64,000 bases of DNA from an uncultured Candidatus Saccharibacteria bacterium (GTDB taxonomy: Bacteria > Patescibacteriota > Doudnabacteria > UBA920): assembly GCA_964532425.1 (NCBI GenBank), contig CAZHIA010000001.1, forward strand, positions 124,951 through 188,950. Direction: 5' to 3'. Below are positions 6,396 through 45,500 of the stretch, piece after piece. Below the pieces are notes generated by a model that worked only from the letters and a program-made list of their open reading frames with translations, did not search any database and was not told where the DNA came from. The translations under genes were made by a program, and so were the position numbers. Position 1 is the stretch's first letter; each line of letters starts with the position of its first letter.

Positions 6396-6453
6396 GATGC
6401 AGTAGGGAAGTAATCATTCCAGGCAGTTTAAAAATACGACAGGGGGAAATTAT

Positions 6454-13526: not shown

Positions 13527-13568
13527 TGGTACTTTCCTCCGAAACTGGGGTAATAGCCGGTCGTGATT

Positions 13569-13949: not shown

Positions 13950-14066
13950 CGCGACCGCCCCCTACGAGTAATGAAGTCCCCGGAAGGTTCCCTTCAAGGG
14001 CGCTCGCGTGCTCGACGCAATTCCACTCTCGGGGTATACTAGGGGTGCATAATTACAAGGAATTGT

Positions 14067-14410: not shown

Positions 14411-14422
14411 TCTTTAAAGAAA

Positions 14423-23750: not shown

Positions 23751-23783
23751 GGGCGGCGACATTTGACATGTAACATGTGACAT

Positions 23784-24473: not shown

Positions 24474-24475
24474 CG

Positions 24476-24562
24476 CAAATGACAAAAATTAAAAAATTTA
24501 AAAAATTGACAAAAATGCTGCAGTCGAATTTTTTTAATTTTCGTCGTTTTTGTCATTTTTGT
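24476..24562. repeat. TTGACAAAA inverted-repeat array E2
   Basis: ATGACAAAAATT...AAAAAATTGACAAAAATG-CTGCAG-...TTTTCGTCGTTTTTGTCATTTTTGTTCATTTTC. It overlaps the 5' end of the next ORF. Confidence 0.55.
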
Positions 24563-25951
24563 TCATTTTCAGAATCCGGGTCCATCCTGATCTATAACAT
24601 CGTCATTATCTTCATCTTCACCCTGGTCATGCTGGGTGCGTTGGCGTATGCTACGATCCAGCTGCGCGTGGTTCGCTCCGTGGTCAACCGCGAACAGGCA
24701 TTCCAGATTGCGGAAGCCGGGGCAAATTACTACCAGTGGCATCTGGCGCATTTCGCCACCGATTATGCCGATGGCACGGGGCAGACGTGCAATCCGTGCG
24801 GGCCGTATGTGCATGATTACGTGGATAAGGACACAAACAATGTGATTGGCCGGTATTCGTTGATGGTTACTCCGCCGGTGACCGGTTCTACTATTGTGAC
24901 CATTACGTCTACCGGTTACACGCTGGCCAACCCTTTGCAAAAACGTACCGTGACAGCGCGTTACGGCATTCCGTCGCTGGCCCAATATGCTTTTTTGACG
25001 AACACGGACGCCTGGATTGGTTCGAATGAGACGGTTACCGGGCAATTCATGACCAATGGGGGAGTGCGTTTCGACGGGACCGGGAACGCGCCGATTATGT
25101 CGGCCAAACAAACATACCAATGCCAGAGCTGGTCAGGGAGCCCGTGCCCCGCGACCAAGCCGGGTATTTGGGGAGCAGCGACGCAGTCGACCCAGAATTT
25201 TTGGCAGTATCCCGTGCCGAACGTGGACTTTTCTTCAGTGACTTCCAATTTTGCGAGCATTAAGAGCTCGGCTCAGACCGGCGGCGTGTACCTGCCGCCT
25301 TCGAATCAATCGGGTTACTCGCTGGTTTTTAAATCGGACGGCACAGTGGACGTATACAAGGTAACGTCTCTGCGTGCGAATCCCACCGGATGGGACGTGG
25401 ATAATAAAGCGCACAACGAAGATCTTGATTATAATGCGCGAACATTCCTGTACAATACCCCCATTCCAAACAATGGCCTATTCTACGTTGAAGACCGGAC
25501 CTGGGTGGAGGGAACCGTAAAAGGCCGGGCCCTGGTGGCGGCCGCCAAACTCCCGTACAATGCCAATACAGCCCCAAGCATCCTGATTCCGAACAATATC
25601 GTCTATGCGGCCAAGGACGGGACAAATTCTTTGGGCTTGCTGGCTCAGGAAGACATCCTGCTGACATACTACTCTCCGAACAATCTGGAAATCGATGCGG
25701 CACTGTTTGCACAGAATGGCAGTGCACAGCATTACTACTGGCCGGGAGTGGTGAAAAATTCCATCACCATTTACGGCACAGTGGGCAGTTACGGCCTTTG
25801 GACGTGGAGCTGGGTGGATGGCGGGAATAACATAACCAGCGGGTATTCTTCCACCAATACAACCTATGATGCAAACTTGCTGTATGCACCGCCGCCAAGC
25901 TTTCCTCTGACCAGCGGCGGGTACCAGCAGATTAGCTGGAGCAGCAACTAA
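24515..25951 (+). CDS. PilX-like minor pilin (type IV pilus assembly)
   Basis: Hydrophobic helix ILIYNIVIIFIFTLVMLGALAYA followed by REQAFQIAEAGANYY, as in the PilX N-terminal domain (AFQAAEAGL). The start is uncertain: ATG at 24515, or 24479 inside the repeat array. No clean G|FxxxE motif. Confidence 0.5.
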   Translation: MLQSNFFNFRRFCHFCSFSESGSILIYNIVIIFIFTLVMLGALAYATIQLRVVRSVVNREQAFQIAEAGANYYQWHLAHFATDYADGTGQTCNPCGPYVHDYVDKDTNNVIGRYSLMVTPPVTGSTIVTITSTGYTLANPLQKRTVTARYGIPSLAQYAFLTNTDAWIGSNETVTGQFMTNGGVRFDGTGNAPIMSAKQTYQCQSWSGSPCPATKPGIWGAATQSTQNFWQYPVPNVDFSSVTSNFASIKSSAQTGGVYLPPSNQSGYSLVFKSDGTVDVYKVTSLRANPTGWDVDNKAHNEDLDYNARTFLYNTPIPNNGLFYVEDRTWVEGTVKGRALVAAAKLPYNANTAPSILIPNNIVYAAKDGTNSLGLLAQEDILLTYYSPNNLEIDAALFAQNGSAQHYYWPGVVKNSITIYGTVGSYGLWTWSWVDGGNNITSGYSSTNTTYDANLLYAPPPSFPLTSGGYQQISWSSN

Positions 25952-25954
25952 GTA

Positions 25955-26036
25955 ATTGACAAAATTTTAAAAATTGACAAAAATGACAAAAATTAACTGC
26001 AGTTTGGTTTCCTATTTTTGTCATTTTTGTCAATTA
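25955..26036. repeat. TTGACAAAA inverted-repeat array E3
   Basis: ATTGACAAAATTTTAAAAATTGACAAAAATGACAAAAATTAA-CTGCAG-TTTGGTTTCCTATTTTTGTCATTTTTGTCAATTAA. Confidence 0.55.
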
Positions 26037-27704: not shown

Positions 27705-27844
27705 TCCACAATATATCGAATCTACGAATAGAACGAATCAACGAATAACTACGAAATTTCGAATTCGTTGATTCGTAGTCCTTCGCAGATTCGTCAAATT
27801 CGCAGATTCGATATATTCATACGTTTGTCATTCTTATTTCTTAA

Positions 27845-28861
27845 ATGGACCATCATCCTTTCTACAAGCTATCCCATCGCATTGTCTCCGCATGGTCAGA
27901 CCGGCTGACGCGGCCTTTGACTGCGGAAAACATCGGTCCTAAAATTCTTCGTATCTGCGGAGCTACTTTGGATTTGCGCGATTATGACCGCGTGGTTGCG
28001 GTGTGGTGCGGCCGTCATCCCTGGGAAGAGTTTGCCACCCAGGTGGAAGCGGTTTTTGGGAAGGAGGGTATTCCTTTGTACGAGACAGCCACATCGACCC
28101 GGGTTGCGCAGCTGGCAGATGTCCTGCATGAGTTGGGGGAGGACGATGCGGTCGTATTTTTGCATGGCGGTAGTATGTACTGCCGCCCGGATGTACTTCA
28201 GGCGCTCTCCGCATTGAAGCATGCGGGTGCTTTACCGGCGGAACAGGACACGGTTCACAAGCATCTGGATGAATTCAGTGCTCCGGGACTGGCCTGCCTG
28301 GCGCAGCCTGCGGATTGCCTGGAGTTATGCTGGTCGCCGGCCGGTATCGGCTGTCCTTGTCCGAGTTGCCCTACAACAGCACGTGAGGCCCGTGAGGTTC
28401 TAGAATTTTATAACATTCCGGAGATGACCGGTAAGCCGTCATTCCGTCTCGAGCAGCGGAACGCCGAAAACACCAGGCGCGTTGTCTGTATAGACCAGGA
28501 TGAGATGGCACAACTGTTTAAGGACGCGGTTGAAGAATTCGGGTTGACTGTGCATGATGGACGTGGTAATGAAGTTCTGGGCGCCGGCGAGTACCCGGCA
28601 TATTGCTCGTTTGCTTTTTTAGAAGACCAGTCGCGGTTGAGATCTGTCCTTTCTCAGAATCCGGCCCGTACCCATTTGCTTCTCGTCTGGAACGAGCCTA
28701 CAGGCCGGCTTCGATATGTTGCGGCGCTTGCAGGCCACGCTATTCCGGCACAGACCGTACTTTCCGGATTCGATCAGGCTACATGGCAAGGTCCCGGCAT
28801 CTCTGCCGAAGCCGCAGGTTTTCTGAATGAACCGTTCGCGATTGTGGCGGCGTTATTTTAG
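27845..28861 (+). CDS. hypothetical protein (GC-richer than surroundings)
   Basis: 338-aa ORF with coding-like composition. No motif recognised. Immediately downstream of the ATP-grasp gene. Confidence 0.4.
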   Translation: MDHHPFYKLSHRIVSAWSDRLTRPLTAENIGPKILRICGATLDLRDYDRVVAVWCGRHPWEEFATQVEAVFGKEGIPLYETATSTRVAQLADVLHELGEDDAVVFLHGGSMYCRPDVLQALSALKHAGALPAEQDTVHKHLDEFSAPGLACLAQPADCLELCWSPAGIGCPCPSCPTTAREAREVLEFYNIPEMTGKPSFRLEQRNAENTRRVVCIDQDEMAQLFKDAVEEFGLTVHDGRGNEVLGAGEYPAYCSFAFLEDQSRLRSVLSQNPARTHLLLVWNEPTGRLRYVAALAGHAIPAQTVLSGFDQATWQGPGISAEAAGFLNEPFAIVAALF

Positions 28862-28889
28862 ACACGAGGGGTGATTTTATGATATAATT

Positions 28890-31800
28890 ATGGAAAGTTG
28901 GAGGTGTGTTTCGAAATCAAATACAAATCATATGGCCAAGCCAAAATTAACCCATAAGGGGAGAGGGCGTGCTCCTATGGAAAAAGTCACAATCAAGCGG
29001 GTAAAAAGAAATACTAAAAAGCCGACAACTAAAGAAAAAATCCTGGCAGGATTGGGTTTAGGCTCCACGCTGCTCGGCGGCATCGCCTCAGTCAGTCCAA
29101 AGCCTCAAACTACCCAATTTACCAGATCGCAAGGTGATGAAGCCAAGAACAGCGGCAGCAAGGTTAAAAACGTGCTGAACCAGATTTTTGGCGTACCGGT
29201 TGCCCAAGCTTCCACTGATTATAGCACTATGAGCAAGGATGAGCTCGCCCAGCTTGCGGCACAGTTGAACGTGCCGAACCAGACGCCGCAGCAACAAGCG
29301 GAGTACCAGGCCATTGTGAATGCATACTATGGCAGAACGCCCACAACGTCCACAAGTAGCTCGTCAACCTCTTCCTCCAGTACCGGGAACAGTGGTTCAA
29401 CGACTTCCGAGGGTTCTACGCAAGGTACCGCATCGGGAGTTCAGGCGTACCATAATGGACAGTGGGGTGCTCCGCAGTCAGGAGATAAATTCACGGACGG
29501 CGCCGGGGTCAACTATACATTCCAAGGTGGGCAGTGGGTTCCAGACGCGCGCGATACGTACAGTCTTCCGACGACAGGTAATAAAGTGGGGGATACCAAA
29601 GCGGTCGGACCGAATCAAGTCGTCAGGTGGAACGGTGTGGCTTGGGTCGATGCTGACATTGGTACGGCCTTTAGTGACAATAGCGGAAATACCTTTGTAA
29701 TGGATGCCAGCGGAAAATGGATCCAGGGTGTCTACATGACTAATCCGCAGGGGTATAACCAGATCACTGGTGAGTACAGCCAGATGAATCCCATCAGTTT
29801 CGCTACTTTAGAGGCGGCAAAAGGATATGCCCAGTTGCTCGGAGGAACAGTTGAGGCTGTCACCTATGACCAGGGGCCGTATCGATTGGCCCAGCCACAG
29901 TATGTTATACGCGTAGGGAATGCAGTCTTGAATGCCGGTCTCGTGGCTCAGACGTTGAATGCATTCCCGAACGGCATGCAGATGATCCAACAAGAGATCT
30001 CGAAGTATAATTCCGCCGGTGTATCCACAAATAGTATGACCAAAACCCTGGAGGAGCTGCATGCTATGTACCCGAGCATAAATGTTGACGTGCCAGCTGC
30101 GAACGTGAGCGGGAATACGTACACAGGCCTTGCTGGTCAAGGCTCTAATGCTGCTTTTTATGGCCAAACTGCAAACGCCGGCGCCGCAATTCCGGGTTCG
30201 GCACCGGTTTGGAATATTGGGAACACGGGAACCCAGACCGGGACAGCCACCGGTCAACTGACCGCCCAACAACAGCAATGGATCGCTCAGTCCGGCACAA
30301 CCACCCGCCAGGCATTGCAGGGACAGGCCGGAGCGGTGGAATTTTTAGACAGTTATTTCGCCAATCATCCGGAACGGCTGCCCCAGGCTTTTGCGCCCGG
30401 TAGCTATATTGCGTACGGCTTGAGTGTCGGTACTTCCACCAGCGCCAATGTTTCCAATTATAACTTCAATTTTGATACCGGTAAATACGAAAAAGGCGGG
30501 ACAGGAACAACCGTAACTCCGCGAACTGATGCTCCAAATCCTGCTGCAACGGTTAACTTTAATTCGCTGACAGACCAGCAAAAGCAGGATATGACCGCTT
30601 ACTATGGCGGCCATCCGGAACGGCTTCCTGATGCTTTTGCCCCCGGTAGCTTTATCGCTTTTGGGCTGGGACTGGGAGGCGGGGCGCCGGATCTTTCAGA
30701 TCCGACCACGGCCAATACCCTGCAGAAAGCCGGGTACACCTGGAACGGTACGGCTTACGTGAAGATTGGTTCGACTGCAGCCTCGCATACTCCGACCGGA
30801 CCGATTACGACAGGAGACTATTATACCGATGAGCAAATTAAGAACATGGCTAATGGGATCGTGTACGATCCGGTAAAAATTTCCGATGCCCAACTACTGA
30901 GAGTGCAGAGTGGTATTACCGTGCCTGACCGGGTCTTCCCTGGTACGGTGCTTGCATATATGCTGGGCCTGGGGGATGCCAAAACCCAAGCTACCCAAGC
31001 TACGCGCGTCGGAACTGACGGCAAAACCTACCAGTATTCCAGCGGCTGGTGGGTAGTCCAGCCCGGGACGACAACTCAGGGAGCGCATACCAACGTACCG
31101 AATCCGGCACAAACAACCCCACCGGCTACCACTACGAGTCCTGATACTACGGTCACTATCAAGAGTCCCGGGGCAACCAGCGGCTCCACAATTAATGTCT
31201 CAATCAGCCAGCGAGCGAATAATGTGGTGCATATCGAATTCGTCGATCCTAACACGAATCAGCTGGTCAGCAAGGATTTTTCTTCCCTTACCGAATTTAG
31301 CAAACTGTTGCAGAGTTACAATGTAGGCGGAAATGATACCGCTGCCAGGAATTCACAGGCAGTGTTTGCGGCATTGGGATCGATCGGGCAAAACTGGAAT
31401 AAGGTAGCTACCGGGACTGTCCTGCCGCTGCCTCAGACAGTAACCCAGTCATCGGTCAACAATTCGGTATGGACCGACCAGAACGGCAATAGGGCGGTGA
31501 CTGCGGGAGCGTTGGGCATTAACGAACCATTGGGAGTGTTGTTCTATGATGCCGGTACCAACACACTTTACCTTGACCATGGGAACGGACAGTTTGAGAC
31601 TTTAACCGGCAACCAGGCGTATAATCAAGCCCGCGTGATTGAATATACGAATTTGATCAAAGCTGCCACGGCTACGCCCGATCATACGGCTGCGAGCAAT
31701 GACACGCTCCTCAAAGCGCTCGGCCGCAACACGGCAACGGTGGATGCCCAGCACCCGCTCGGTACCGGAGCCCAGAGCACGGGTTCCGGAATGCTGCAGC

Positions 31801-33224
31801 AAGGGGCTTGGTATTCCTGGACCGATTCATCGGTAGTCAAGGATTATGGGAAAAATGCCAACGCCTTCAAGGCGGATTGGCAAACTGATGCGACCGGTAA
31901 AGTTACGAGCATTACCATTACAACTACGAATGCCCAGGGACAACAGGTGCTCAGAACATTCCCGAGTCCCCAGGCCTTAATGAACTTTTTAGACACAACT
32001 TCTGGTCAATGGGCAGGATTGAACCCAGACCAGCAGCAAAATGCCTTTGCTGGTTTGCCTGATAATGTCAAAGCCATGTATACAGCCGCTAATGCAGCGC
32101 GGTCGTATATCCCGAATTTCCCCAATATCCAGACCACGAACCGTGTTGTAACCCCGCCGGGAACAGCCCAGCTTATTTCCACGGTTCCTGGATCGACCGG
32201 TCAGGTGTTGTCAGGAATGAATCCGGAATACTTTACGACTCCCGACCAAGCCAATGCGGCGCTGGCGGCCATCAGACAATACCACCCGGATGCGAAGTTG
32301 GTGGATATGTCGGTCAATTCCAGCCCTGGCTGGTTCACGAGCTATGGAACTGATCCGCGCGTTGGTTGGATGATCGTATATAATATCGATAACGGCAGTA
32401 ACCGCGCCACCTATGTTGACCCGGCAGCCGTGCTCAAGCAAATCGGTACGAGCGGACAATTGGCCAAAGATATTCCCGGTACCCAGCAATCCTTTTTTGC
32501 TACCAATAACGGAATTAACGTGGTCTTTAACACTGCCGTACCGAAAGGGTCCATGGGCGCAGCAAATACTGGGGCGGGTACGGGGACGCCGGCCGGCAGT
32601 ACTGGACAAACATCGAGCGGAACGCCAGCTCTCGGCGCTGTGTTGGGTAAAAACCCTTTCCATAACAACGAGAATGTTATGGTCACAACGGTTAACACGT
32701 TAGACGGATCGCTGCGGCCAACCAATGGTGTACTTTCCGACGGCTCGACCATAGAGATTGGCGGATATAATTTGGACGGGGCGTATAACCATTTCAGCCT
32801 CATGATCGGTACCGCTGAAGTACCCATCGACCAAGCCGTTATTACTGCCAATAAGATAACGTTACATCCAGTTTTCCCCAGCAGTACCCCAAATGGTGCT
32901 ATAATAAGAATTAAGCTACTGAGCGCTAATCCGGCACTCGCCGCAGGCCAGCTTTCCGGCGTATCTTTTAGCTTTACCAGGACCCAGTCTAGTAGTTTAG
33001 ACCAGGTAGACACGGAAACACAGGATTTGGAGTCCTCAGACGCGAGCGGGACTAGTCAGTCTCAATCTACGTATGTGGTCCAACCGGGCGATACGCTGTG
33101 GTCAATAGCTCAAAAAGTTTATCAGAGCGGTACCCAATGGGACAAGATTCTTTCGGCCAATAGTGATACTCTTCATGGGCCCCAGGATCTGAGAGTCGGC
33201 ATGGTACTGCGCATTCCATCTTAA
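28890..33224 (+). CDS. large surface protein (1444 aa) with N-terminal TM anchor, Thr/Ser/Gly/Gln-rich body and C-terminal LysM domain
   Basis: ILAGLGLGSTLLGGIASV anchor. C-terminal YVVQPGDTLWSIAQKVYQSGTQWDKILSANSDTLHGPQDLRVGMVLRIP (33072-33221) is a canonical LysM peptidoglycan-binding motif. Start may be an internal Met (MAKPK at 28932 or MEKVT at 28977). Confidence 0.7.
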   Translation: MESWRCVSKSNTNHMAKPKLTHKGRGRAPMEKVTIKRVKRNTKKPTTKEKILAGLGLGSTLLGGIASVSPKPQTTQFTRSQGDEAKNSGSKVKNVLNQIFGVPVAQASTDYSTMSKDELAQLAAQLNVPNQTPQQQAEYQAIVNAYYGRTPTTSTSSSSTSSSSTGNSGSTTSEGSTQGTASGVQAYHNGQWGAPQSGDKFTDGAGVNYTFQGGQWVPDARDTYSLPTTGNKVGDTKAVGPNQVVRWNGVAWVDADIGTAFSDNSGNTFVMDASGKWIQGVYMTNPQGYNQITGEYSQMNPISFATLEAAKGYAQLLGGTVEAVTYDQGPYRLAQPQYVIRVGNAVLNAGLVAQTLNAFPNGMQMIQQEISKYNSAGVSTNSMTKTLEELHAMYPSINVDVPAANVSGNTYTGLAGQGSNAAFYGQTANAGAAIPGSAPVWNIGNTGTQTGTATGQLTAQQQQWIAQSGTTTRQALQGQAGAVEFLDSYFANHPERLPQAFAPGSYIAYGLSVGTSTSANVSNYNFNFDTGKYEKGGTGTTVTPRTDAPNPAATVNFNSLTDQQKQDMTAYYGGHPERLPDAFAPGSFIAFGLGLGGGAPDLSDPTTANTLQKAGYTWNGTAYVKIGSTAASHTPTGPITTGDYYTDEQIKNMANGIVYDPVKISDAQLLRVQSGITVPDRVFPGTVLAYMLGLGDAKTQATQATRVGTDGKTYQYSSGWWVVQPGTTTQGAHTNVPNPAQTTPPATTTSPDTTVTIKSPGATSGSTINVSISQRANNVVHIEFVDPNTNQLVSKDFSSLTEFSKLLQSYNVGGNDTAARNSQAVFAALGSIGQNWNKVATGTVLPLPQTVTQSSVNNSVWTDQNGNRAVTAGALGINEPLGVLFYDAGTNTLYLDHGNGQFETLTGNQAYNQARVIEYTNLIKAATATPDHTAASNDTLLKALGRNTATVDAQHPLGTGAQSTGSGMLQQGAWYSWTDSSVVKDYGKNANAFKADWQTDATGKVTSITITTTNAQGQQVLRTFPSPQALMNFLDTTSGQWAGLNPDQQQNAFAGLPDNVKAMYTAANAARSYIPNFPNIQTTNRVVTPPGTAQLISTVPGSTGQVLSGMNPEYFTTPDQANAALAAIRQYHPDAKLVDMSVNSSPGWFTSYGTDPRVGWMIVYNIDNGSNRATYVDPAAVLKQIGTSGQLAKDIPGTQQSFFATNNGINVVFNTAVPKGSMGAANTGAGTGTPAGSTGQTSSGTPALGAVLGKNPFHNNENVMVTTVNTLDGSLRPTNGVLSDGSTIEIGGYNLDGAYNHFSLMIGTAEVPIDQAVITANKITLHPVFPSSTPNGAIIRIKLLSANPALAAGQLSGVSFSFTRTQSSSLDQVDTETQDLESSDASGTSQSQSTYVVQPGDTLWSIAQKVYQSGTQWDKILSANSDTLHGPQDLRVGMVLRIPS

Positions 33225-33247
33225 AAGATAATTTATTATAAACACAA

Positions 33248-34063
33248 ATGACAGAACACACCCACCACCACACTCCGGCTACTCCGGATGATGCTGGGCA
33301 GACAGGATCTCCTTCCATGCAGGGCGGCAGCCAGGGCATGGTCGCCTTGAGCATTTTGCTCGGGGCAATCTTAGTAGCAGCAGCGATGTTTTATAACACC
33401 AACGTCCTGGTGAAGAAAATGGGCGGAACGGAATTGACAGCACAAAAGGGTACGGAACAGCAGGCGCAAGCCCAGCCACAACCTCAACCTCAGGCGCAAG
33501 CCCAGCCACAGCAGCCGTCCGGGCCGGTGAGTGTCACGGATCGCGGTGACCAGCCGACTATTGGAAAGTCAAATGCCAAGGTGACCATTTACGAATTCTC
33601 AGATTTCCAGTGCCCATTCTGCCAACGGTTTGAACAGGGAGCTTATGCGCAGATTAAAACCAATTATATCGACACCGGCAAGGCCAAACTCGTATACCGC
33701 CACTATCCGCTGCCTTTCCACGTGAATGCCCAAAAGGCCGCAGAAGCAGGGGAGTGCGCGAATCGTCAAGGTAAGTTTGAGGCTTACCATGATATGCTCT
33801 TCGCCAAAGGCCAAGCTGACGGAACAGGGTTAGCTCCTGCTGATCTCAAGCAGTATGCTTCCCAGGTCGGTCTGGATACCGGCAAGTTCAACAAGTGTCT
33901 GGATAACGGCGAGACTGCCCAGGTGATCAAAGATGATACGGCTGCAGGAACGGCTGCCGGCATCAACGGCACTCCGAGCTTCGTAATCGGCGGTAAGCTG
34001 ATTGTCGGAGCCCAGGACTACAGCCAATTCCAGGCTGCGATCGATGAGGCGCTGAAGAAATAG
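33248..34063 (+). CDS. DsbA-like thiol:disulfide oxidoreductase (thioredoxin fold)
   Basis: TM anchor, (QPQ/AQ)n linker, then FSDFQCPFCQRF with a CPFC active site (33611-33622) and the DsbA-family pattern GTPSFVIGGKLIVGAQ. Confidence 0.85.
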   Translation: MTEHTHHHTPATPDDAGQTGSPSMQGGSQGMVALSILLGAILVAAAMFYNTNVLVKKMGGTELTAQKGTEQQAQAQPQPQPQAQAQPQQPSGPVSVTDRGDQPTIGKSNAKVTIYEFSDFQCPFCQRFEQGAYAQIKTNYIDTGKAKLVYRHYPLPFHVNAQKAAEAGECANRQGKFEAYHDMLFAKGQADGTGLAPADLKQYASQVGLDTGKFNKCLDNGETAQVIKDDTAAGTAAGINGTPSFVIGGKLIVGAQDYSQFQAAIDEALKK

Positions 34064-34107
34064 ATTCGAGAGCAGAGTTGGTAGTGAGTAGTTTATAGTT
34101 TATAGTA

Positions 34108-34147
34108 AACACCGCCTGACTGTATGGTCAGGCGGTGTTTTGGTTTT
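34108..34147 (+). terminator. rho-independent terminator
   Basis: AACACCGCCTGAC-TGTATG-GTCAGGCGGTGTT hairpin followed by TTGGTTTTG. Confidence 0.7.
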
Positions 34148-34149
34148 GA

Positions 34150-35690
34150 ATGCCCTTTGCGCAAAAATCGACGCTCAAATTTGCCATTAGAAAGGAGTTT
34201 TTATGGGTCTTGGTAGATTGAGTAGCTCCTTAAATTATCGTTTGAGGGCAGTAAGTTTGGCGGTAGGCATACATGTTGTTCTGTTTGCGGTAGGACAAGG
34301 GGAGATTTGGTTTGCTGATGCATATTCGTATAATGAAATGAACATCGCTGTCCTTGCTCGCAAGATTTGTAGATTGAACAGACTTACCTGAAATTCGTCG
34401 TGGCCGGAGTGCAAAAATCACAGCCGATAATTAAATTTTATACTTGCAAATGTATAGGGGAATGGAAGGCGAGTGTACAGTGCTGGTGTGACTGAGGTAA
34501 ATATTTTGTTAACACTATTGAACAGAGTGCCAGGTGAATCCCTCTCCTATCTTTCAGGTGGGTGCGTTGCGTAAAGCACGTAAGGAGAGAAATCTTGCTG
34601 AGTAGATTTCAGTCTTCGTCTGAGAGAGTAGAAAGATATCCGCTGGGGGCAAATATTATTACATAATCGGAACGGTTCAATTGTAACCCAACTTTTGCAT
34701 TTGTAAATATTTATTATTTGAGATATGGGCAAGAGGACGTTGCATCATCTGATGATGTATGAATAAATTTCGTCCCTACAAAACACATCCCGACAACTGT
34801 CCGAGGATTCTGTGCAGGAGCAAGCGACAGCTGCCCGCTCCCATTCTGATTGTTAAATTTTTGCGGGCGGATCCAACCTTCGCATGAACCTTCCTTCTTC
34901 GCTTAAGCTATGGAGGACAAGTCGGCGGACACGGTAAGTCCATGCACCATCCGATGGTGCATGGATAAATCTCCCCCCTGTACATATGACGGTGATCGCG
35001 CATGTGTCTCTTGCTCCCTGTAGGGACGAGCGATGGCTGTCCGATTAACCTACAGTGTAACTGTGATGGGCTGATTAATGCGGCCCCTCTATAAACAAAT
35101 TACTGATCACTCCAGTGCAGGAGAGTATTTTTTCCCCGCCATGGCTTTCCCGTCCGACAAAGCTTTTTGACCGTCAGTAGTTTTAACGGAGGAGGGTAGC
35201 GATGATAGGAAGCGACGGTGGGAGTCGCCCTCTAACAGCTTTACATCGGATCCGTTACGGGCGCATGAATGCGGCCTCTACAGAATACATACCGATGATC
35301 GTAAAGATGTTCCTTGTTCCTTGTAGGGGCAAGCGGCAGCTGCCCGTCCCGTTGGAGTTGATACCATGGTGATACGGGCGGGTCTAGTCACGAGCGGATG
35401 AATCCTGCCCTGCTGACTACATATTGATAACCCCTGAAGTGTAGGGGTGTGCTTTCTTGTCTACCAAGACTTTTTGACTGTCCATAGCCCTGCCTGCTCC
35501 TCGAGTCTGAGCAACCTCGGAGTCGAAGACCGGCAGGCAGGTTCATGCGAAGGGTATTGCGACGGGGCGGGAGCTGTCCGCACTCATCATGTATCAGGTG
35601 CTATAACCGGGCGGACTTATTAAATCCATACAACATCTAATGGTTGATGGATAAACCTCACCCCTACGCTGTGAGTAGTTCCTCCTTTTT
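34150..35690. other. 1.5-kb non-coding region with degenerate ~40-bp direct repeats and multiple hairpins; candidate ncRNA(s)/regulatory array
   Basis: No ORF over 65 aa. Repeats at 34814-34842, 35008-35043 and 35311-35351 (consensus TCTTGYTCCYTGTAGGGRCAAGCGRCAGCTGCCCGTCCC). AATGCGGCCYCTCTAYA motif at 35076 and 35263. Hairpins CATGCACCATCCGATGGTGCATG (34941-34963), GCATCATCTGATGATG (34743-34758) and ATCCATACAACATCTAATGGTTGATGGAT (35625-35653). Confidence 0.5.
35488..35541. repeat. 53-nt GC-rich hairpin element, copy 2 (inverted relative to 13897..13949)
   Basis: CCTGCCTGCTCCTCGAGTCTGAGCAACCTCGGAGTCGAAGACCGGCAGGCAGG. Its reverse complement differs from copy 1 at about 4 positions. Confidence 0.6.
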
Positions 35691-36400
35691 TGATTTGCAA
35701 GTTACCTAAATTTTCAGTCTAAAAAATGGAAAAAATTTGTGGATAACAGCAATTATAACATGCAAAATTTGAGGGTCGTAAGAAGGCATTTCAAGAGAGA
35801 TTAGGGAGTAGTATAAATAGTTAAAGATAAAAAAGCCTAACAAACATGAGACCTCAGAGTGGCGTGTAACATATGAAATTGAGAATTGCTCTTTCACTGA
35901 GAAGTAAAGCTTGAAACAAGAACTATCGTGCTTTATTTAAAGAATCTAAGTTTAAAATTAAAAGTATAATGAATCTAAATTCTATAAAATACTGAGGAAA
36001 ATATTTTTGTGGTAACACAGTTGTAACGAAGTTTCATAATGTAGCAAGTACTACCATTCCGGTGTCATTCATTTTATGAACTGCGACAATATACCTAAAA
36101 AACGTATTTAAAAAATCACACATTAATCTCTCTTATGAGATTGTTGGGGATTTTTAGATCTTTTCTGATCAAAAAATCAGCACGGGTTATGGCTAGATGA
36201 AACAGCATTTTTAACTCTCAAATCGCTGTTATTTTGCAATTCAATTTTGAAAGGAAAAATTGTTCATATTTTTGTCCAATAATTTTCTTAACGGTATAAT
36301 TTAAATATGAATATCGGGTATCCGAGAAATGCGAAAAAGACCTATAAACATAATGTATTTTAAAAGGCCAGTAGTTCAGAGACAGACAGGAAACTAACAC
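35690..36400 (+). promoter_or_regulatory. ~700-bp strongly AT-rich leader upstream of the giant gene, with a candidate promoter TTGTCC-17-TATAAT at 36271..36299
   Basis: Composition shifts sharply from ~50% GC to AT-rich. TTGTCC (36271-36276), 17-bp spacer ending CGG, TATAAT (36294-36299), about 105 nt upstream of the GTG start. Confidence 0.45.
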
Positions 36401-36405
36401 CTCAC

Positions 36406-36590
36406 GTGAGCCAAGAAATCAACGAAAATTTGGAAGGAATTGTCTCCCTCGCGGAAGCCAGCAAGGTAACCGGCTACAACCAAGATTACCTTGGCTTTTT
36501 ATGTCGTACCGGTAAACTGCAGGGTTTCAAGCTTGGCCGTAACTGGGTGACGAGCAAACAGGCCCTGGATGATCTCATGCGCCAAGAGGC
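36406..36590 (+). other. domain: excisionase/MerR-type helix-turn-helix at N-terminus of giant protein
   Basis: SLAEASKVTGYNQDYLGFLCRTGKLQGFKLGRNWVTSKQALDDLM fits the excisionase-family HTH pattern (hydrophobic-S/T-x-xEAAxxLGVSxxTVxRLxxxGxLPxxKIGRxWRI). Confidence 0.55.
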
Positions 36591-39500
36591 GGGGCAGCGG
36601 GTACCTGTGCACGTACAATCTACAACCGTTGAAACAGTCAGACCAATTGAACCACAATCCGGGAACCCGCTCGGAACTCAAGTACCACCTGCTATGGGAT
36701 TGGCAGTGTCACAAATTGAACAGCAGCGGACGGAACAAATGAATACTGTTCCTGCCGTGGTGTCTTTGGAGCGTGCTGCTGCCGAAGAGCTTGAGCTTGC
36801 CAAACTAAAGAACGAAGTTGTGGTCGGTGATCTTTCAAAAAAGATTGCCACTCTTACAGAGACGCTCAGCACGACAGTAACAAAGTTACAGGCCCCGGCG
36901 CTCTCACTCAAAGACCAGGTGAACTGGATTAAATCTTTTACTACGCAGAAAACGTCTGCATGGAAATATGTTCTTTCGGGAGGCGCCGCGATGGCGGTAG
37001 TCGCGTTGCTGTCGTGGGGTCTGTGGTTCAATATGCGGATGACGAGAGAATTGGTGGCACAACCGAAAGATTCGCGCGTCGTCTACCAGAACAATTACAA
37101 CAACAACTACAACTACTACAACAACGGAGAGAAGACAAGCGGCACGCCGGTGAGCATGAACGGCACGAGCGGAACTCAGAGTCCCATAGCGGCTGGCAAA
37201 GGGAATGTTCTTTTCCCGAGCGCTCTCGATTACAACTCGCTCATTGATACTCGCATCGAGTCGTATATCGCGAGTGGAAAATTGAAAGGCGAAAAAGGCG
37301 ACAAAGGTGAGAAGGGTGATCGAGGTGACAATGGTCTCGATGGCTTTAGCACAAATGTGGGTACGGGATTGCAGCAGTCATACATTCCGGTTACATACGT
37401 GCAGCCGGTGAATCAACCGGCAAGCGGCGTGACGGGTTCTATGTCCGGCGCTACGCATTTTGCGGTTGCTGACCTCATTGCTGACAAAGCGGTCATCGGC
37501 AGCGGCGGGTTGACCATCAACGGACCGGTGACCTTCAGCAGTCCGCTGACGGTGTCTGATATCAATTTAAATTTCACACCGGGCAGCATCGTGTTCATGG
37601 GACCGAAAGGCCTTGCACAGAACAACGGTAAATTATTCTGGGATAATCTGACCTACCGCTTGGGCCTGAACACGACGACTCCGGAAGCCATGCTCAGCCT
37701 GGTTCAGAACGGCGGCGAAACCATGATCAAAGGTTTCGTAAATTCTACAAACACCCCGCAAGGAGAATTCATCTCTTTGGGGTATTCGGATACGGCTACG
37801 GAAATTTATTCGGTGGACACCAGGGGTAACATTAAAACTTCCGGTACGTTGACCTTGTCAGCCATGACGACCGGCAGTATTCCGTTCGTGGTTACGGGCG
37901 GCACGCTAGCGCAGGATACTTCTAATTTTTATTGGGACAATACCAACAAGCGCTTTGCGGTCGGCACGACCACCGTACCGGCAACGTTCGCTTTAGCCCA
38001 GACAAACAATGGCGATACCATCATTCAAGCAAGCCGCGCGACGGACAACGCGCCAGCCGGTGACTTTATCGCATACAAAGACGCTGCAGGTAATACGCTG
38101 TTCCGCGTCAATAATAACGGCAGCCTTACGGCCCCGGGTGTGACGAGTACGGGAGAACTGGCTGTCGTGGGCACTTCAACTTTAGCAACAACAACTATAA
38201 GCAGTCTGTCGTTGTCACAACCATTGTCATTGTCCTCGGGCGGTCTGGGCTTTGACGGCTCGAGCGTGACCAAAGGAAGTCTGATTGCCGGAACTGGGAA
38301 TGGTTCTTTGGGTGTCCAATCCGTAGGATCGGACGGGTTGTGCTTGACCGCCTCATCTTCAGCCGCTTCAGGAATAGCGTGGACGTCCTGTTCAGCCGCA
38401 GCCGGCGGTATTCAGAGCTTAAACGGCTTGGTTGCAGTCAATCAGTCACTCGCAACAAATACCACGGCTACCGGTTTAGTCCAGACCATCACATCTGCCG
38501 GTGGAACCCATACCTTCAACCTCTCGCTTAATCCCAGCTATACTATCCCGCTGATTGCTTCCACGACCAATTGGAACTTAACGTATGACACAGTCAATGC
38601 GGGTAGCGCCAACTGGACGAGCACTTACGGTATCGTTAACGCTTCGTCTTCGCTTTGGACTGCTGCTACGAATCTTGTGAATGCCAATAGTACCAATTGG
38701 ACCGCGGCTTACAATACCGTTAATGCCTCCTCGACGTATTGGGATAGTGCGTATGCCAATCGCATCACTTCTGCAGCTGCCCCGCTTCAGATAAGCAGCA
38801 ACCAGCTATCTATCCAGGCCGGGTATAGTATTCCGCTTAGTGCCTCTAGTACTAACTGGAACACCTTCTACAATACTCCGTCCACGCAAATTACCGCTGG
38901 TACCGGTATGACGTGGTCAGGCAATACGTTGAACTCAGTGTGGACGCAATCCGGCAGTGACATCTCCAATCTCACCATGGGCAACGTCGGCATTGGCAGT
39001 GCAAGTCCGGTTGCCAAACTCGATGTGGCTGGCGCGGTTCGCCTGGGTGATGCCGGGGCTAATAATCTTTTGAATACTTCAGCCGCAGCAGGTACCGCGA
39101 GCGGTCCCTTGTATTGGGGTAGCAAGCCTTTGGCATATTCGCTGTCTGTCCAGCAGAGCGATGGTAACAGCCTGGTCAACGGCGTGGAATATATTCAGTT
39201 TGACCAGGGTACCGGATTGCACGTGACCGACTTGGGTAATAAGAGCGTCAAGATCAGCATCGGCAGTCACTGGAAGGATCTCTATATTAATGGAGTAAAG
39301 AATTTGACGCCGACCGGCGAAGAACCGCTGAACTTCAACACCGATGCAAATTTGTTGCTGACTGCCAGCTCGAGCACGGTCCCACAATCTTTGAATTTTG
39401 CATTAAGCCCTAACATCCAGGTGACCTCTGTTACTGCTGCGAATGCTTCCACGACGCATTTCACCTCGACCGGTAATGCTTATTTGAATAATCTGGTGTT

Positions 39501-42500
39501 TGCTAACGCCACCGGATCCGCACTAAGCTTGGCCAGTACCTTGGCTGTAGGCGGTGCGTTGAATGTATCCGGAAATTCCAATGTCTCCAATATCATCGTG
39601 ACCGGTAACAGCACCACAACCGGTAATAGCATTTTTGTCGGCAATGTCGGTATTGGCGGAGGTTTGAATTTCAGCAATGCGACCGGTACAAATCTCTATT
39701 TGTCGGGATCGCTTGCCGCATCCAACTTGACCGGCACCAATACCGGCGATGTGACGCTGGCCGGAGAAAATTATGTATCGATCAGCGGCCAGCAAATTAC
39801 CGCCAATGCCATCAACCTAGCTACGACCAATGTTACGGGTATTCTGCCGGTAGCCAAGGGCGGCACTGGATCTTCCACGTTGAATACGAGCGTGGTGCCG
39901 GAAGGGTTGAACCTTTACTATACCGACGCGCGTTCCCGCGCGGCCTTGTCGTCTTCCGCCACCGGACTTTCATACGACAACATCACCGGCATCTTTAATT
40001 TATCCGCAGGCTACAATATTCCTCTGACTGCTTCCACTACTGAATGGTCTTCCGCCTATGCCAATCGCATCACCTCTGCTACCGCACCGCTGGCGATCAC
40101 CAATAACGTTTTGGGTTTGCAGGCTGGCTATTCAATTCCATTGACTGCGTCGACTACGAATTGGAACACGGCCTACAATATCGTGACAGCTTCTTCCACG
40201 TACTGGGATGCCGCGTACGCCAATCGGATCACTTCCGCCCTGGCACCGCTCCAGATTAGCAACAACCAGTTATCACTGGATTCGAATTACACTATCCCGC
40301 TGACCGCGTCTACCACCAATTGGAATAATTTTTATAACACGCCGTCCACCAGAATCACCGCCGGCACTAATTTGTCTTGGTCTGGTAACACCTTAAACGG
40401 TCCGGCTGATTCCTACATCCGCGGACTGCTCTCATCTGCCGCAACTGGGCTGACTTACAATTCCGGTACTGGTGCTTTGAGCGTAACTGCTGGCTACAAC
40501 ATTCCGCTCGCTGCGTCCACCACCAACTGGAATACCTTCTACAATACTCCATCCACCCAGATCACTGCGGGTACTGGTTTGTCGTGGTCGGGCAACACTT
40601 TAAATGCCACCAACAGCTTCACCGGTTCCGGTACGAATAACTACGTTGCCCGCTGGACGGGTACGAGCTCTCTGGGCACTGGAGTGTTGTTCGACAATGG
40701 AACGAGCGTTGGTGTTGGTACGACGTCACCCATAGCCAAACTTGATGTTTGGGGCAACTTAAACGTAGGTACTTCCTCGACTCCAACCCTTTCTGTTAAT
40801 ACAGCAACTAATCAGGTAGGTATTGGCAGAGTACCGGTTAGTCATGCTCTGGAAATTGGCGCTGATCAGACCATTTGGTCCAATTCTGCCCTGACATTGA
40901 TGACTGCAAATTCCGGTAATATGAATTTTAATAGCACCGGAAACATAGTATTAAATCCCTACACCGGTGGAGATGTAACCTTCCCGGGTTTGGGGATATG
41001 GAAAAATAGTGGCAACGTTGGTATCGGAACTACGACTCCTGGGCAGAAGTTGGTTGTTAATGGTAGCGAGTATGTCACCGGAGCGAGGTTGGACAGCAAT
41101 GCCTCGGCGGGAACTTCCGGTTACCTTTTGCAAACCACTGGCACTGGCACGCAGTGGGTGGCAACTTCTTCACTCGGCATCATTGGCGGTATCCAGTCCC
41201 TTAATGGATTGAATTCTCTCAACCAAACCTTCGCCACCGGCACTGCTACCGGGATCGGTTTGAACATTACCTCGGTCGGTTCGACTCATACCTTCACGCC
41301 GACCGTGGCCTCTGGCTATTCAATTCCGCTGACCGCCTCCACGACCGAATGGGCTACGGCCTATACCAATCGCATCACCTCTGCTACTGCGCCGCTTCAG
41401 ATTAATAGTAATACACTCTCGGTCCAGGCTGGTTATAATATTCCATTAACCGCGTCCACTACAAATTGGAATGGCTTTTACGATGTACCCTCAACCCGCA
41501 TCGCTGCTGGCACTAATATGTCCTGGTCTGGCAATACTTTAAATGGTCCGGCTGATTCTTACATCCGTGGATTACTCTCATCTTCTGCCACTGGCTTGTC
41601 GTACAACTCCGGTACTGGCGTGTTCTCTTTGACTGCTGGTTATAACATTCCACTCACGGCCTCGACCACCAACTGGAACACGGCCTACAACACCGTGAAC
41701 GCTTCTTCCACGTACTGGGACAGCGCTTATGCCAATCGCATAACTTCTGCTGTTGCTCCGTTGCAGATAAGTAGCAACCAGTTGTCACTGGATCCCAACT
41801 ATATCATTCCGCTGACTGCGTCCACCACCAATTGGAATAATTTTTATAATGCGCCGTCGACCAGAATCTCTGCAGGCTCTGGCCTAGCCTGGTCTGGTAA
41901 TACGCTGAATTCAGTGTGGAGTGTCAACGGCAATAACATCTATAATAACAACTTGTCCAATGTCGGGATTGGGACGACGAGTCCTGTCTTTGCGCTCGAC
42001 GTGAATGGCCAGGTCAATGCGCAATCAGGTTTGTGCATTGCTGGTGACTGCAAGGCTTCGTGGTCTGCGGTGAGTGCGGCCGGGTACTGGACGCAGAGTG
42101 GCGGCAATTTGTATCCCTCTACGATCGGCAACAATGTCGGAATCGGCTCCTCCAATCCGCAGGCGAAATTGGACGTGGTCGGTAATGTGCGCGTGGCTGG
42201 AAACATCATGCCGGAAATGACCGGCGCGACCGGAAATATTTCCACGCGTAGCATTGGGGATGCTAACAACCGCTTTGCGGATGTCTGGGCCAACGACGTG
42301 CATGTCGGCGCCAGCTCTTTGTACGTAAACGGCAAGAAGGTCATTACCGATGTGTCCAATGTCATGAATTTTACGACTGACGTGGATCAGTCATTGGTTG
42401 TTAAGACTTCCGGCATTGGCAGCATGGGATTGCAGACCGATGCAGGTTCGCTGCTGTTGAATTCCAACAGTCTCATTTCCGCGACCGGCAAGGGTGGCAT

Positions 42501-45500
42501 TAATTTGACGGTGCCGATTGACACACCGTCCATGAATTTGAATCTCACGAATAATTCCTTAAACGGCAACATCACCTTTACCGCAACGGGCAATAACTCC
42601 CAAGTGCTAGCCAGCGCCGTGCAAAAGATTGCTTTGACCTCTCCGAGTATTGAATTGAACGGGACGGTGACCAGCGGCACTTGGAATGGCACCAAGATCG
42701 GTGTGCCGTACGGCGGTACCGGTGTCTCGTACATTACTCCGAACGCGGTTGTTTACGGCAACGGATCCGGAGCGATAGCAACAACGTCCGCACCGTCTGC
42801 CGGTCAAGTGCTCATCGGCAACGGCAGCAACGTTCCGACCTTTGCTTCCATTAGCGGTGATGCTGCATTGAATGGTTCCGGCGCGTTAACTTTGAATTCG
42901 GTCAATTCCAACATTGGCACCTTTAACAATGTTACGGTCAATGCGAAAGGTTTAGTCACTGCAGCTTCCAATGTGTCTTACCTGACCGGCAACCAGACCA
43001 TTACACTTTCCGGTGATGTGAGCGGTAGCGGAACTACGGCTATCAATACCACGCTGGCGACAGTGAATGCCAACACCGGTTCGTTTGGTTCCGCTTCCGC
43101 GGTGCCTACCTTTACGGTCAATGGCAAAGGATTGATTACTGCTGCCGGTTCTGCCCCGATCGCTATTAATGGCAACCAGATTACTTCCGGCACGGTGGCC
43201 CCGACCTACGGCGGCTTAGGATTTAATGCTTCCACGATCGCCAAGGGCGGCCTGCTCACGGGTACCGGATCTGGCAGCTTTGGTATTCAAACTGCGGGAA
43301 CCGATGGCCTGTGCCTGACGGCTTCTTCTACCTCAGCTTCCGGCGTAGCTTGGACTTCCTGTTCCTCCGGTTCCATTACCTCCTTAAATGGTCTGACTGC
43401 TTCTGTCCAAACCTTTGCTACCGGCACGGCAACCAGTATTGGTCTGAATATTACCTCAAACGGTTCAACTCATACTTTTACACCGACAGTCACATCCGGG
43501 TACAGTATCCCTCTGACTGCTTCCACCACGGAATGGGCTACGGCGTACAGCAACCGCATCACTTCGGCTACTTCGCCGCTCCAGATTAGCAATAACCAGC
43601 TTTCGATTGCTGCCGGCTACAACATTCCACTCACAGCTTCCACTACTAACTGGAACACGGCTTACAATACCGTCACTGCATCCTCGACCTACTGGGACAG
43701 TGCGTACACTAACCGCATTACCTCGGCTACGGCTCCTTTGCAAATCTCCAGTAATCAACTTTCTGTCCAGGCTGGTTACAATATTCCTTTGAACGCTTCC
43801 ACTACTAACTGGAATGGCTTCTACAATGTGCCATCATCCAGAATCACTGCCGGTACCGGTCTGTCCTGGAATGGCAATACTTTAAACTCCACCATGCAGG
43901 CTTATGCCACGACCACCATTAACGGTGCAGCTGGTCCGACCTTTGCCTTTGCTGCCGGAACTGATACCAACCTCGGCCTGACCATTGCCACTTCCACCAA
44001 CACGGTGACCTTCACTCCAACCTGGTCAGGGACCCTGGCTGCCGGCAGATTGAACAGCAACGTGGTGCAGGGAATTACCAATGACACCAACATCACCGGC
44101 TCCATCTCTGCCCAGAACCTGACCTTAGGCTGGTCTGGTCAGCTTTCAGTTGCCCGCGGCGGCACTGGCGCTAATAGCTTGACTGGTGTGCTGAAAGGCA
44201 ACGGTGCCTCTGCCTTCACTGCCATGACCGGCACTGCCAACTACGTCACGCGCTGGACCGATGCCAATACCCTCGGGACAGGCACACTCTATGACAATGG
44301 TACTAACGTGGGGATTGGGACAACGAATACTAATGCCACTTTGCAAGTTTATAATTCTTCCGCTACAACGAAATATATAAAAATCGGCAATGTCGCAAAT
44401 CCGACAACAACTGCAGGGGCAGGAGGTATGGTTGTTGATGTCAATGGGGGCGGTGGAATTTACATGGGTGATTCGGTTGCCGGAGTCTATGGGAAATATG
44501 AAGCCTATAGCGGACAATTGGGTGTTGGTACCATGTCTAACCATCCGGTTGGGTTCTGGAGCAACAACATAGAACGTGTCCGTATTTCAAGTGATGGAAG
44601 CGTCGGTATTAATACCACCACTCCGGGTCAAACCTTGGTCGTAAACGGCACCATGCAAATCACAGGCGGCGCCCCCGGAGCCGGCAAGATTCTCCAGAGC
44701 GACGCTAATGGTGTAGCCTCCTGGGTTTCCACCTCTACCATGGTTGGTGGTAACGCCATTGTTTCCTTAAATGGACTGACCGCTTCCTCGCAGACGTTTG
44801 CCACCGGTACTGCTACTGGCATCGGTTTGAATATCACTTCAATCGGCTCAACTCACACCTTTACCCCGACCGTGGCCTCTGGCTATTCAATTCCGCTGAC
44901 CGCCTCCACGACCGAATGGGCTACGGCCTATACCAATCGCATCACCTCTGCTACTGCACCGCTGGCGATTACGAATAACGTTTTGGGTTTGCAGGCTGGT
45001 TACAGCATCCCGCTCACGGCTTCGACCACCAACTGGAACACGGCCTACAACACCGTAAACGCTTCCTCAACCTACTGGGACAGTGCCTATCAAAACAGAA
45101 TCACATCTGCCTCTGCACCGCTGCAGATTTCTAATAATCAATTATCCATACAAGCTGGGTACACTATTCCATTAACTGCTTCTTCTTCAGAGTGGTCCAG
45201 TTTCTACAATACGCCATCGACACGCATCGCAGCTGGAACCAATTTATCTTGGAATGGTAATACCTTAAATGGTCCGGCTGATTCTTACATTCGTGGATTA
45301 CTCTCATCTTCTGCCACTGGCTTGTCTTACAACAACACGAACGGCGTGTTTTCTCTCGCTGCTGGCTACAATATCCCGCTTACAGCGTCTACTACGAATT
45401 GGAATACGGCTTACAACACAGTTACAGCTTCTTCTACTTATTGGGATAGTGCGTACACCAGTCGTATTACATCCGCCGTTGCCCCGCTTCAGATCAGTAA

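Follow-up and report, generated by a model that had tools for sequence, protein, structure and literature searches.

A 2.3-kb gene-free region upstream of a giant gene in an uncultured Candidatus Saccharibacteria bacterium: a putative control region, a degenerate repeat array and a dispersed 53-nt palindromic element

Repetitive extragenic palindromic (REP) sequences have a layout of GTAG plus a palindrome. In enterobacteria and pseudomonads, the clusters of REPs and bacterial interspersed mosaic elements (BIME), which are recognised by REP-associated tyrosine transposases (RAYT), are intergenic non-coding tandem mosaics of short imperfect palindromes. Rickettsia palindromic elements (RPEs) are small genus-specific palindromes of ~100-150 bp that are found between genes and also in frame within conserved genes. 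In clustered regularly interspaced short palindromic repeats (CRISPR), the repeats measure 25-36 nt and are separated by unique spacers of similar size; as a criterion, direct repeats of 23-47 nt were allowed, and cas genes usually lie close by. In the arrays of tandem interspaced guide RNA (TIGR), the units are ~36 nt long, with 8-12-nt repeats and 9-nt spacers, and are built either of alternating edge and loop repeats or of box C/D stem-loops; TIGR-Tas occurs in Patescibacteria, where the array stands next to a Nop-domain Tas gene (PMC12045711). Among regulators, a cytoplasmic DNA-binding domain followed by a membrane helix is the arrangement of the membrane-tethered ToxR and CadC proteins. 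Here, we compare with these systems a gene-free region of ~2.3 kb (34064-36405) that lies between a DsbA-like gene and a giant gene of 8734 aa on the 335-kb contig CAZHIA010000001.1 of an uncultured Candidatus Saccharibacteria bacterium. Positions refer to the window, that is, the whole 64-kb stretch of this contig that was analysed.

In the account that we favour, with modest confidence, the gap consists of three unrelated parts: a control region belonging to the giant gene, a decaying array of repeats, and one inserted 53-nt palindromic element. Each is of a kind already known: a promoter plus operator in the first case, a tandem repeat in the second, and in the third a selfish palindromic element. 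The gap opens where the DsbA-like open reading frame (ORF) ends, at 34063, and closes at the GTG start codon of the 8734-aa ORF, at 36406. An earlier note, made from the letters of this DNA alone, had described it as the largest non-coding stretch of the window and as free of any long ORF. Both descriptions hold, as the next largest gap, 13527-14394, measures 870 bp and no ORF between 34063 and 36406 exceeds 63 aa. The window from 27783 to 40632 is matched at 100% identity, with zero differences, in an independent Logan assembly of SRR11567520; because of this exact match, the region is not an assembler artefact, and the fear that it might be a gap-fill can be set aside. The GC content is genome-like at 0.50-0.55 over 34800-35700 and falls to 0.28-0.33 over 35700-36400, which agrees with the low GC reported before for the last 700 bp. 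The giant gene and the features of its putative control region are as follows:

36406-62610, + strand: giant gene, 8734 aa
35701-36405, + strand: AT-rich putative control region of the giant gene, GC 0.28-0.33
35738-35746, + strand: TGTGGATAA, single copy, 668 nt before the start codon, reading as a perfect DnaA-box 9-mer, TTATCCACA, on the other strand
36272-36300, + strand: sigma-70-type promoter TTGTCC-17-TATAAT
36314-36327, + strand: TCGGGTATCCGAGA, an operator-like palindrome that begins 13 nt beyond the -10 box
36301-36405, + strand: probable 5' leader of ~105 nt, its start judged from the -10 box; no unusual predicted structure (z = +1.08)

The evidence for the control region comes from nine independent loci that have the N-terminal domain of the giant protein at the start of the gene, namely the window and the loci L009, L014, L019, L082-L085 and L123. 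The heptamer TATCCGA or its complement TCGGATA stands 24-138 nt before the start codon in all nine, TATAAT is found at -108 to -111 in five, and TGTGGATAA is present once, in the same orientation, at -605 to -767 in 5/9. The 8-9-mers of the operator motif are ~235-fold enriched in the 200-nt upstream stretches relative to 2.08 Mb of other DNA, and in the 64-kb window there is one exact copy of the operator 9-mer. When the upstream kilobases were scanned for k-mers without bias, the operator motif and TGTGGATAA alone emerged. Two loci, L014 and L019, carry two direct TCGGATA repeats 14 nt apart, which resemble the head-to-tail sites of Xis and BldC. An AT-rich gene-free upstream region of 0.46-2.25 kb is common to all of the homologues. 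The gene order of the window is kept in L019, with DsbA, a small ORF, a mostly AT-rich gene-free gap of 2.25 kb and the helix-turn-helix (HTH) gene. To judge from these motifs and their positions, 35701-36405 would be the region that controls the giant gene. The TTGTCC-17-TATAAT promoter named in the earlier note is indeed present, although its term for the last 700 bp, an AT-rich leader, is a misnomer, because the promoter stands 111 nt before the start codon and ~600 of the 700 bp lie upstream of it. Similarly, the idea that the whole gap is a regulatory platform is sustained for these 700 bp but not for the remainder.

The protein encoded by the giant gene begins with the highly conserved SLAEASKxTGY(H/N)QDYLGFLCRTGKL, and its N-terminal region is common to ~2,040 cluster representatives, among them short ones of 70-130 aa. 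Its parts follow in the order of a MerR/Xis-type winged helix, a coiled coil, one hydrophobic helix and collagen-like GKxKGEKGD repeats, after which comes a very long region without a Pfam match and then Peptidase_S74 near the C-terminus. The predicted model of the first 70 residues has a per-residue confidence score (pLDDT) of ~90 and matches the DNA-binding domains of TraN, Xis/RdfS, BldC, GlnR and MerR (TM ~0.6, probability ~1); the score of Pfam HTH_17 is 16.6 bits, under the curated cut-off of 27. The N-terminal domain is predicted to have a DNA-binding fold, the one that its first 60 aa share in the model with TraN of pIP501, Xis, RdfS, BldC and MerR.

In the proposed mechanism, RNA polymerase would start at TTGTCC-17-TATAAT (36272-36300) to yield a leader of ~100 nt, and a MerR/Xis-type winged-helix protein would bind TCGGGTATCCGAGA. 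The most economical binder would be the cytoplasmic N-terminal domain of the membrane-anchored giant protein, or a short paralogue of it, with TCGGGTATCCGAGA serving as a repressor or feedback operator, and the single TGTGGATAA ~670 nt upstream would be a second conserved site. Repression or feedback is suggested because the operator sits just past the -10 box (13 nt in the window), as repressor sites do, and because it co-occurs strictly with the DNA-binding head domain, the motif being present in 9/9 loci with the HTH gene. The succession of a cytoplasmic DNA-binding domain and a membrane helix recalls ToxR. Unlike the ToxR, CadC and MerR types, the domain here is joined to a protein of up to 8734 aa in which collagen-like and tail-fibre-like stretches occur. 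It is believed that ultrasmall episymbiotic bacteria attach to their hosts by means of giant surface proteins, and we know of nothing reported on how these are controlled. A testable control region, consisting of the promoter, a TATCCGAGA-type operator and the far-upstream TGTGGATAA, is common to distant relatives, and its features suggest that the giant protein's own cytoplasmic DNA-binding head could couple the cell surface to transcription. The operator set of the giant-gene family appears undescribed.

Small PaaX-like genes with a WxxxIFDIPE motif were observed at L019 8773-9144 (123 aa), L082 1979-2458 (with PaaX_M) and L011 17058-17540. Such a gene adjoins the HTH-headed gene in L019 and L082 and could encode a second regulator of the locus; a remnant is not detectable in the window.

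Upstream of the control region, the repeat array (34715-35700) and the 53-nt element that interrupts it have the following features, to which the second copy of the element in the window is added:

34715-34920, + strand: unit U1, degenerate, 3' T module missing; found by a hidden Markov model (HMM) of U2 and U3 at E=1.3e-5
34921-35225, + strand: unit U2, the most complete, with the palindrome 34939-34965 (27 nt, perfect), S module 35019-35043, M module 35074-35088 and T module 35144-35180
35226-35602, + strand: unit U3, broken by the 53-nt element, with M 35265-35279, S 35322-35346 and T 35451-35487
35535-35553: inverted fragment, in the 3' part of U3
35603-35700, + strand: unit U4, short, with the hairpin module plus the hairpin/T-run end of the unit
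35489-35541, + strand: 53-nt palindromic element with sharp borders, core CTCCTCGAGTCTGAGCAACCTCGGAGTCGAAGAC and outer stem CCTGCCTG/CAGGCAGG
13897-13949, - strand: second copy of the 53-nt element, 94% identity, in another intergenic gap and inside a longer palindrome

The array is composed of four degenerate tandem copies of a non-coding unit of 100-375 nt, which is itself made of small palindromic modules. This structure is deduced because local alignments beat shuffled sequence and because the HMM recovers U1. The segments from 34741, 34943 and 35250 are homologous over 100-240 nt, with alignment scores of 54-63 vs 21-23 +/- 3.3 for shuffles, and an HMM built from U2 and U3 alone then detected U1 out of sample. 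The hairpin module is present in three copies (34722, 34924 and 35610) and the T module in two (35144 and 35451). The S module, TGTAGGGRCRAGCGRYRGCTGYCCG, has three copies (34813, 35019 and 35322) where shuffles lead one to expect 0, and it reads TGTAGGG(G/A)C(A/G)AGCG....GCTG(C/T)CCG, a 7-bp interrupted hairpin in which U1 has TGCAG for TGTAG. The degenerate repeat of ~40 bp in at least three copies, as it was first seen, is real and non-random, but its copies are pieces of this longer unit. The repeated motif given before, AATGCGGCC(Y)CT, does occur twice, whereas the 17-nt consensus that came with it is exact for one copy only because the copies diverge beyond ~12 nt. A Tandem Repeats Finder (TRF) run returned two trivial 7-nt repeats only; the spacing of the repeats is 191-686 nt.

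The units have no conserved peptide among them, and the indels between them are not multiples of three. A conserved small peptide was considered and dropped, as the frames part after ~9 codons, and a type I toxin-antitoxin system was rejected on the absence of a paralogous hydrophobic peptide. No copy of the array modules was found elsewhere in the 64-kb window or in ~2 Mb of related DNA, and the S-module pattern is absent from viral and Joint Genome Institute (JGI) metagenome contigs. The array has no counterpart in the syntenic loci L019 and L014 or in four other homologues, which keep the AT-rich part only. Most likely, the array represents a neutral local duplication and expansion in a long permissive intergenic region, because it is lineage-specific, missing from syntenic relatives and decaying, and because one of its units has been struck by a mobile-like hairpin. 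Local duplication would have produced the four non-coding units, which have since decayed. No sequence-specific function of the array is detectable, and it is probably of little consequence.

Like the REP/BIME clusters, the array is an intergenic, non-coding tandem mosaic of short imperfect palindromes, and the S module, with TGTAG at its start and a short hairpin after it, may echo the REP layout. REPs, however, number tens to hundreds of dispersed copies and are accompanied by a RAYT gene, whereas the array modules are confined to one array within the 64 kb and 2 Mb searched (all three copies of the S module lie inside it) and keep a fixed order inside the 100-375-nt unit; no Y1_Tnp (RAYT) domain was found among the window ORFs scanned with Pfam. 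What the array has in common with TIGR and CRISPR arrays is its non-coding tandem repeats, which are partly palindromic and occur in this case in a Patescibacteria-like genome. A TIGR array was rejected, since the repeats show no period of 36 nt, the two box C/D matches are at chance level, DsbA and the giant gene stand on either side, and the scanned ORFs include no Nop-domain gene. CRISPR was likewise rejected, with a spacing of 191-686 nt, a period of 100-375 nt, no alternation of repeat and spacer, and no cas domains in the scanned ORFs.

The 53-nt element belongs to a different family. Its core, searched with the 22-nt centre, is found in at least 120 metagenome stretches, and over the 107 distinct copies among the matches listed, the 34-nt core CTCCTCGAGTCTGAGCGACCTCGGAGTCGAAGAC is either invariant or conserved to at least 90%, amid unrelated flanks. 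At least 10 contigs carry the full 53-nt form with the CCTGCCTG/CAGGCAGG outer stem at 96-98% identity, and their similarity ends exactly where the element ends in the window. Five of the six frames of the core contain no stop codon, and long open frames cross it 19, 19, 18, 17 and 13 times; because the five frames are used about equally, it is not a coding motif. In LepA and IF-2, compared with solved homologues, the core coincides with in-frame inserts of 22 and 36 aa, respectively, and the frame continues across the insert in both. It is also carried in a PEP-utilising enzyme, a RecG-like protein and the tail of RpoC. The core was not found in 2.9 million viral contigs, nor the 53-nt element in 80 GTDB loci fetched with DsbA. 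Rfam gave no hit at the core in 20 metagenome loci, and the syntenic loci gave none either. The pairing of the outer stems is in differing registers, and no covariation signal was obtained for them in a fixed register; the inner stem is uninformative in this respect because it is invariant.

The 53-nt family is likened to RPEs by behaviour, not by sequence: both are small palindromes that are found between genes and in frame in conserved genes, where they are tolerated, and the 53-nt family has no reading frame of its own. It is shorter than RPEs, with a 34-nt core and inserts of 22-36 aa against ~100-150 bp, and its flanks are variable, often consisting of other short palindromes. RPEs are genus-specific, whereas this core is near-invariant across many unrelated metagenome contigs. 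Judged as a miniature inverted-repeat transposable element (MITE), the 53-nt element shows a palindrome, many near-identical copies and sharp borders, but no consistent target-site duplication; the array units are without such copy features, terminal inverted repeats or target-site duplications. The 53-nt element would be a later insertion into U3 from a family widespread in uncultured bacteria and able to lie in frame within essential genes too. The hairpin at 35489-35541 had been noticed before and is present as described, and of the proposal that the region is a decayed mobile element only this hairpin, a member of a widespread dispersed family, can be retained; the rest of the array is without similarity to protein families or other DNA. 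In a broader proposal taken up below, invariance of the core amid unrelated flanks would imply a conserved trans-acting partner, such as a nuclease, a transposase or an RNA-processing activity. A literature search gave no description of the core sequence or of palindromic or MITE elements in Patescibacteria, and the invariant 34-nt core appears undescribed. Within translation-factor genes it looks like the uncultured-bacteria counterpart of the selfish palindromic elements of Rickettsia, and its presence could mislead gene callers and the annotation of ORFs in such genomes.

Other palindromes and insertions were seen around this family. The longer palindrome that encloses the second copy (13880-14010) reads GGGGGCGGTCGCG ... 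ACCGCCTCC, has the 53-nt hairpin at its centre and is flanked by CCCTT(A/G)AAGGGAA-type repeats. A second dispersed palindromic element, GTCATTGCGAG...CTCGCAATGAC, lies at 6245-6370 and 13565-13690 with 89% identity over 55 nt between the copies, and in the metagenome locus L158 the 34-nt hairpin core is nested within an element of this type. The LepA gene of the metagenome locus L191 (1163-3247) has, besides the 22-aa insert, an extra G-domain insertion of ~145 aa (residues 102-247) that looks nuclease-like (KPDFIIENKIIIELKA...), with the ORF open throughout.

Several observations weigh against the three-part account. The S module (83%) and the hairpin module (77%) are better conserved than the sequence between the blocks, one compensatory change preserves the S mini-hairpin, and another preserves the long palindrome; together, block conservation and compensatory changes could reflect selection on protein-binding sites or RNA hairpins, not neutrality. 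The search for further copies of the array covered 64 kb out of the contig's 335 kb. No closely related genome was found, the DsbA homologues being at most 62% identical, source contig aside. The 19-nt inverted repeat formed by 34877-34895 and 35535-35553 could in principle support inversion, as in an inverton, where inverted repeats flank a segment that bears a promoter; the 639 nt between its arms hold no promoter-like site. Binding of the operator by the head domain is deduced from their co-occurrence, and a separate regulator of the same fold fits equally well. The 53-nt element is probably mobile, to judge from its distribution, but no consistent target-site duplication was seen in 12 flanks and no transposase was found.

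Four other explanations and one broader proposal were weighed against these data. The array could be a cis-regulatory or phase-variation platform that provides extra regulator sites, inverts by way of the 19-nt repeat or alters spacing through recombination between units, which we consider unlikely. It lies directly upstream of the conserved control region, its modules are better conserved than the linkers, and the centre of the 27-nt palindrome (CCATCCGATGG) and the U3 equivalent (ATCGGATCCG) resemble the operator half-site ATCCGA. In addition, the arms of the inverted repeat are 18/19 complementary at a distance of 639 nt, for which we estimate a chance expectation of ~6e-4. The right arm, however, is a mere inverted copy of the part of the repeat unit seen in the left arm, both assemblies show one orientation, no recombinase or invertase was found among the scanned ORFs >100 aa, and the exact operator 9-mer does not occur within the array, which moreover is missing from the homologues that keep the AT-rich part. 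Quite unlikely, too, are tandem small RNAs, one per unit, transcribed from the + strand and ending at the hairpin/T-run, or else one long structured RNA. Close to their ends, U2, U3 and U4 each have a hairpin with a T-rich stretch behind it, of which one (35430-35448) was called terminator-like, and the apical stems vary between units with the pairing kept (ACTCC/GGAG vs ACCCCT/AGGGGT). Yet Rfam yields no match at E<=10 beyond chance level, the folding z-scores, -0.3 to -2, are what random sequence typically gives, and RNAalifold on the four units keeps 7 pairs, those of the S-module mini-hairpin, at -3.8 kcal/mol overall; promoter-like sites before the units are absent, unit length varies from 100 to 375 nt, and a homologue was found nowhere searched. 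The structured RNA proposed in the earlier note finds no support, folding being ordinary outside three hairpins and the units sharing almost no structure.

It is very unlikely, in our view, that the segment of normal GC, 34392-35700, represents the remains of an old gene or of some larger mobile element, decayed past recognition. Its GC content equals that of the genome, and L019 has the 123-aa PaaX-like gene between DsbA and the AT-rich region, with a PaaX-like neighbour in L082 as well. Against this, six-frame translations gave nothing in Pfam or NCBIfam at E<=1, and a frameshifted ordinary gene was looked for and not found; a profile built from the PaaX-like neighbours yields negative scores, the only thing that tblastx finds in the window and ~2 Mb of loci is the 53-nt element, and tandem units with indels not in threes are unlike a single decayed ORF. 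A PaaX-like pseudogene was considered on tblastn hits with E = 1.7-2.7 and discarded, since the profile did not confirm them. Hardly any credence can be given to the AT-rich region being a replication origin or another replication-related site. A perfect TTATCCACA does lie in an AT-rich gene-free region and is conserved in relatives, and the slope of the cumulative GC skew changes near 36-38 kb. However, whereas an oriC has several DnaA boxes clustered beside an AT-rich unwinding element, there is one box per region, and boxes with <=2 mismatches number 2 vs 3.3 expected (L014, L019 and L085 are similar); because of this single copy and the scarcity of degenerate boxes, TGTGGATAA does not mark an origin. 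The skew turn, from positive to negative, would be terminus-like and not origin-like, and is dominated by the composition of one gene, the genes on either side run in the same direction, and neither dnaA among the scanned ORFs nor a dif-like site was found. The cumulative skew rises to ~37 kb and falls inside the giant gene (36000-48000), probably owing to that gene's composition. Finally, it is possible, if doubtful as a whole, that the 53-nt hairpin represents an undescribed family, horizontally spreading or strongly constrained, probably of Patescibacteria-like lineages and in frame in essential genes, and that the array forms binding platforms for a membrane-tethered, self-regulating giant protein.

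Returning to the three-part account, the remainder of the gap and its upstream neighbour have the following features:

33248-34063: DsbA-like gene, upstream neighbour of the gap
34107-34140, + strand: putative intrinsic terminator of the DsbA-like gene, a 14-bp perfect stem followed by a T-rich tail; folding z -4.5 to -8.5
34203-34391, + strand: possible small ORF, 62 aa, containing a single hydrophobic stretch; its ATG follows a GGAG at 5 nt; annotated as a gene on the Logan contig
34392-34714, no strand: unique non-coding spacer, GC ~0.40, without recognisable features

The DsbA-like protein has its best matches in Candidatus Saccharibacteria metagenome-assembled genomes (MAGs), at 42-57% identity. 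The ORF at 34203-34391 has no Pfam match and, given its ribosome-binding context, may be a real small gene. Perfect hairpins had been reported for the gap, and four with a stem of at least 7 bp are there, the long ones being 34107-34140 (14 bp) and 34939-34965 (12-13 bp). Only the DsbA terminator, the palindrome 34939-34965 and the 53-nt hairpin depart from ordinary folding energies in sliding windows; a strong z-score at 34200-34319 in the sliding scan vanished when 34150-34400 was folded with 200 shuffles. The Rfam/Infernal scan proposed earlier was run and gave no family at the gathering threshold in the whole 64-kb window. At E<=10 over 33900-36600 it gave three chance-level hits only (E = 1.8-4.7), among which matches to box C/D small nucleolar RNA (snoRNA) models fall at 34479-34528 (+) and 35634-35690 (-), with E = 1.8 and 3.3 and scores well short of gathering. 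A tRNA/tmRNA search found none, and blastn had no match in phage and plasmid collections. Upstream of DsbA, at 21948-25951, lie type IV pilin-like genes (N_methyl, PilX_N) and a gene for a 1444-aa LysM protein, which place the giant gene within a cell-surface gene neighbourhood.

Elsewhere in the window, a repeated leader element precedes four consecutive genes of an NAD-related cluster (3133-3212, 4526-4603, 5052-5130 and 6193-6400). It consists of CCCCTTACCAGA, a long hairpin and then GAATTGCGG(T/C)AAGGAGG, and its predicted folding is very strong (z = -6 to -9). Apical-stem changes keep the pairing, and the AAGGAGG ribosome-binding site is itself paired to the outer stem. Each copy has a terminator-like hairpin, AAGCGGTGGCAGCATGCTGCCACCGC, before it, and there is no Rfam match. 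The leader could be an undescribed regulatory RNA that sequesters the Shine-Dalgarno sequence. One copy of the GTCATTGCGAG...CTCGCAATGAC palindrome is inserted in the loop of the leader element at 6193-6400. Two intergenic regions, 14270-14420 and 25954-26035, contain AT-rich inverted-repeat structures of TTGACAAAAT-like iterons (AATTGACAGAATTGACAAAATT ... AATTTTGTCAATTTTGCTCAATTTTGTCA) that are 86-96% similar. The 338-aa ORF ahead of the 1444-aa LysM gene has immediately upstream of it, at 27710-27817, a 108-nt imperfect palindrome (78%) rich in CGAAT/ATTCG.

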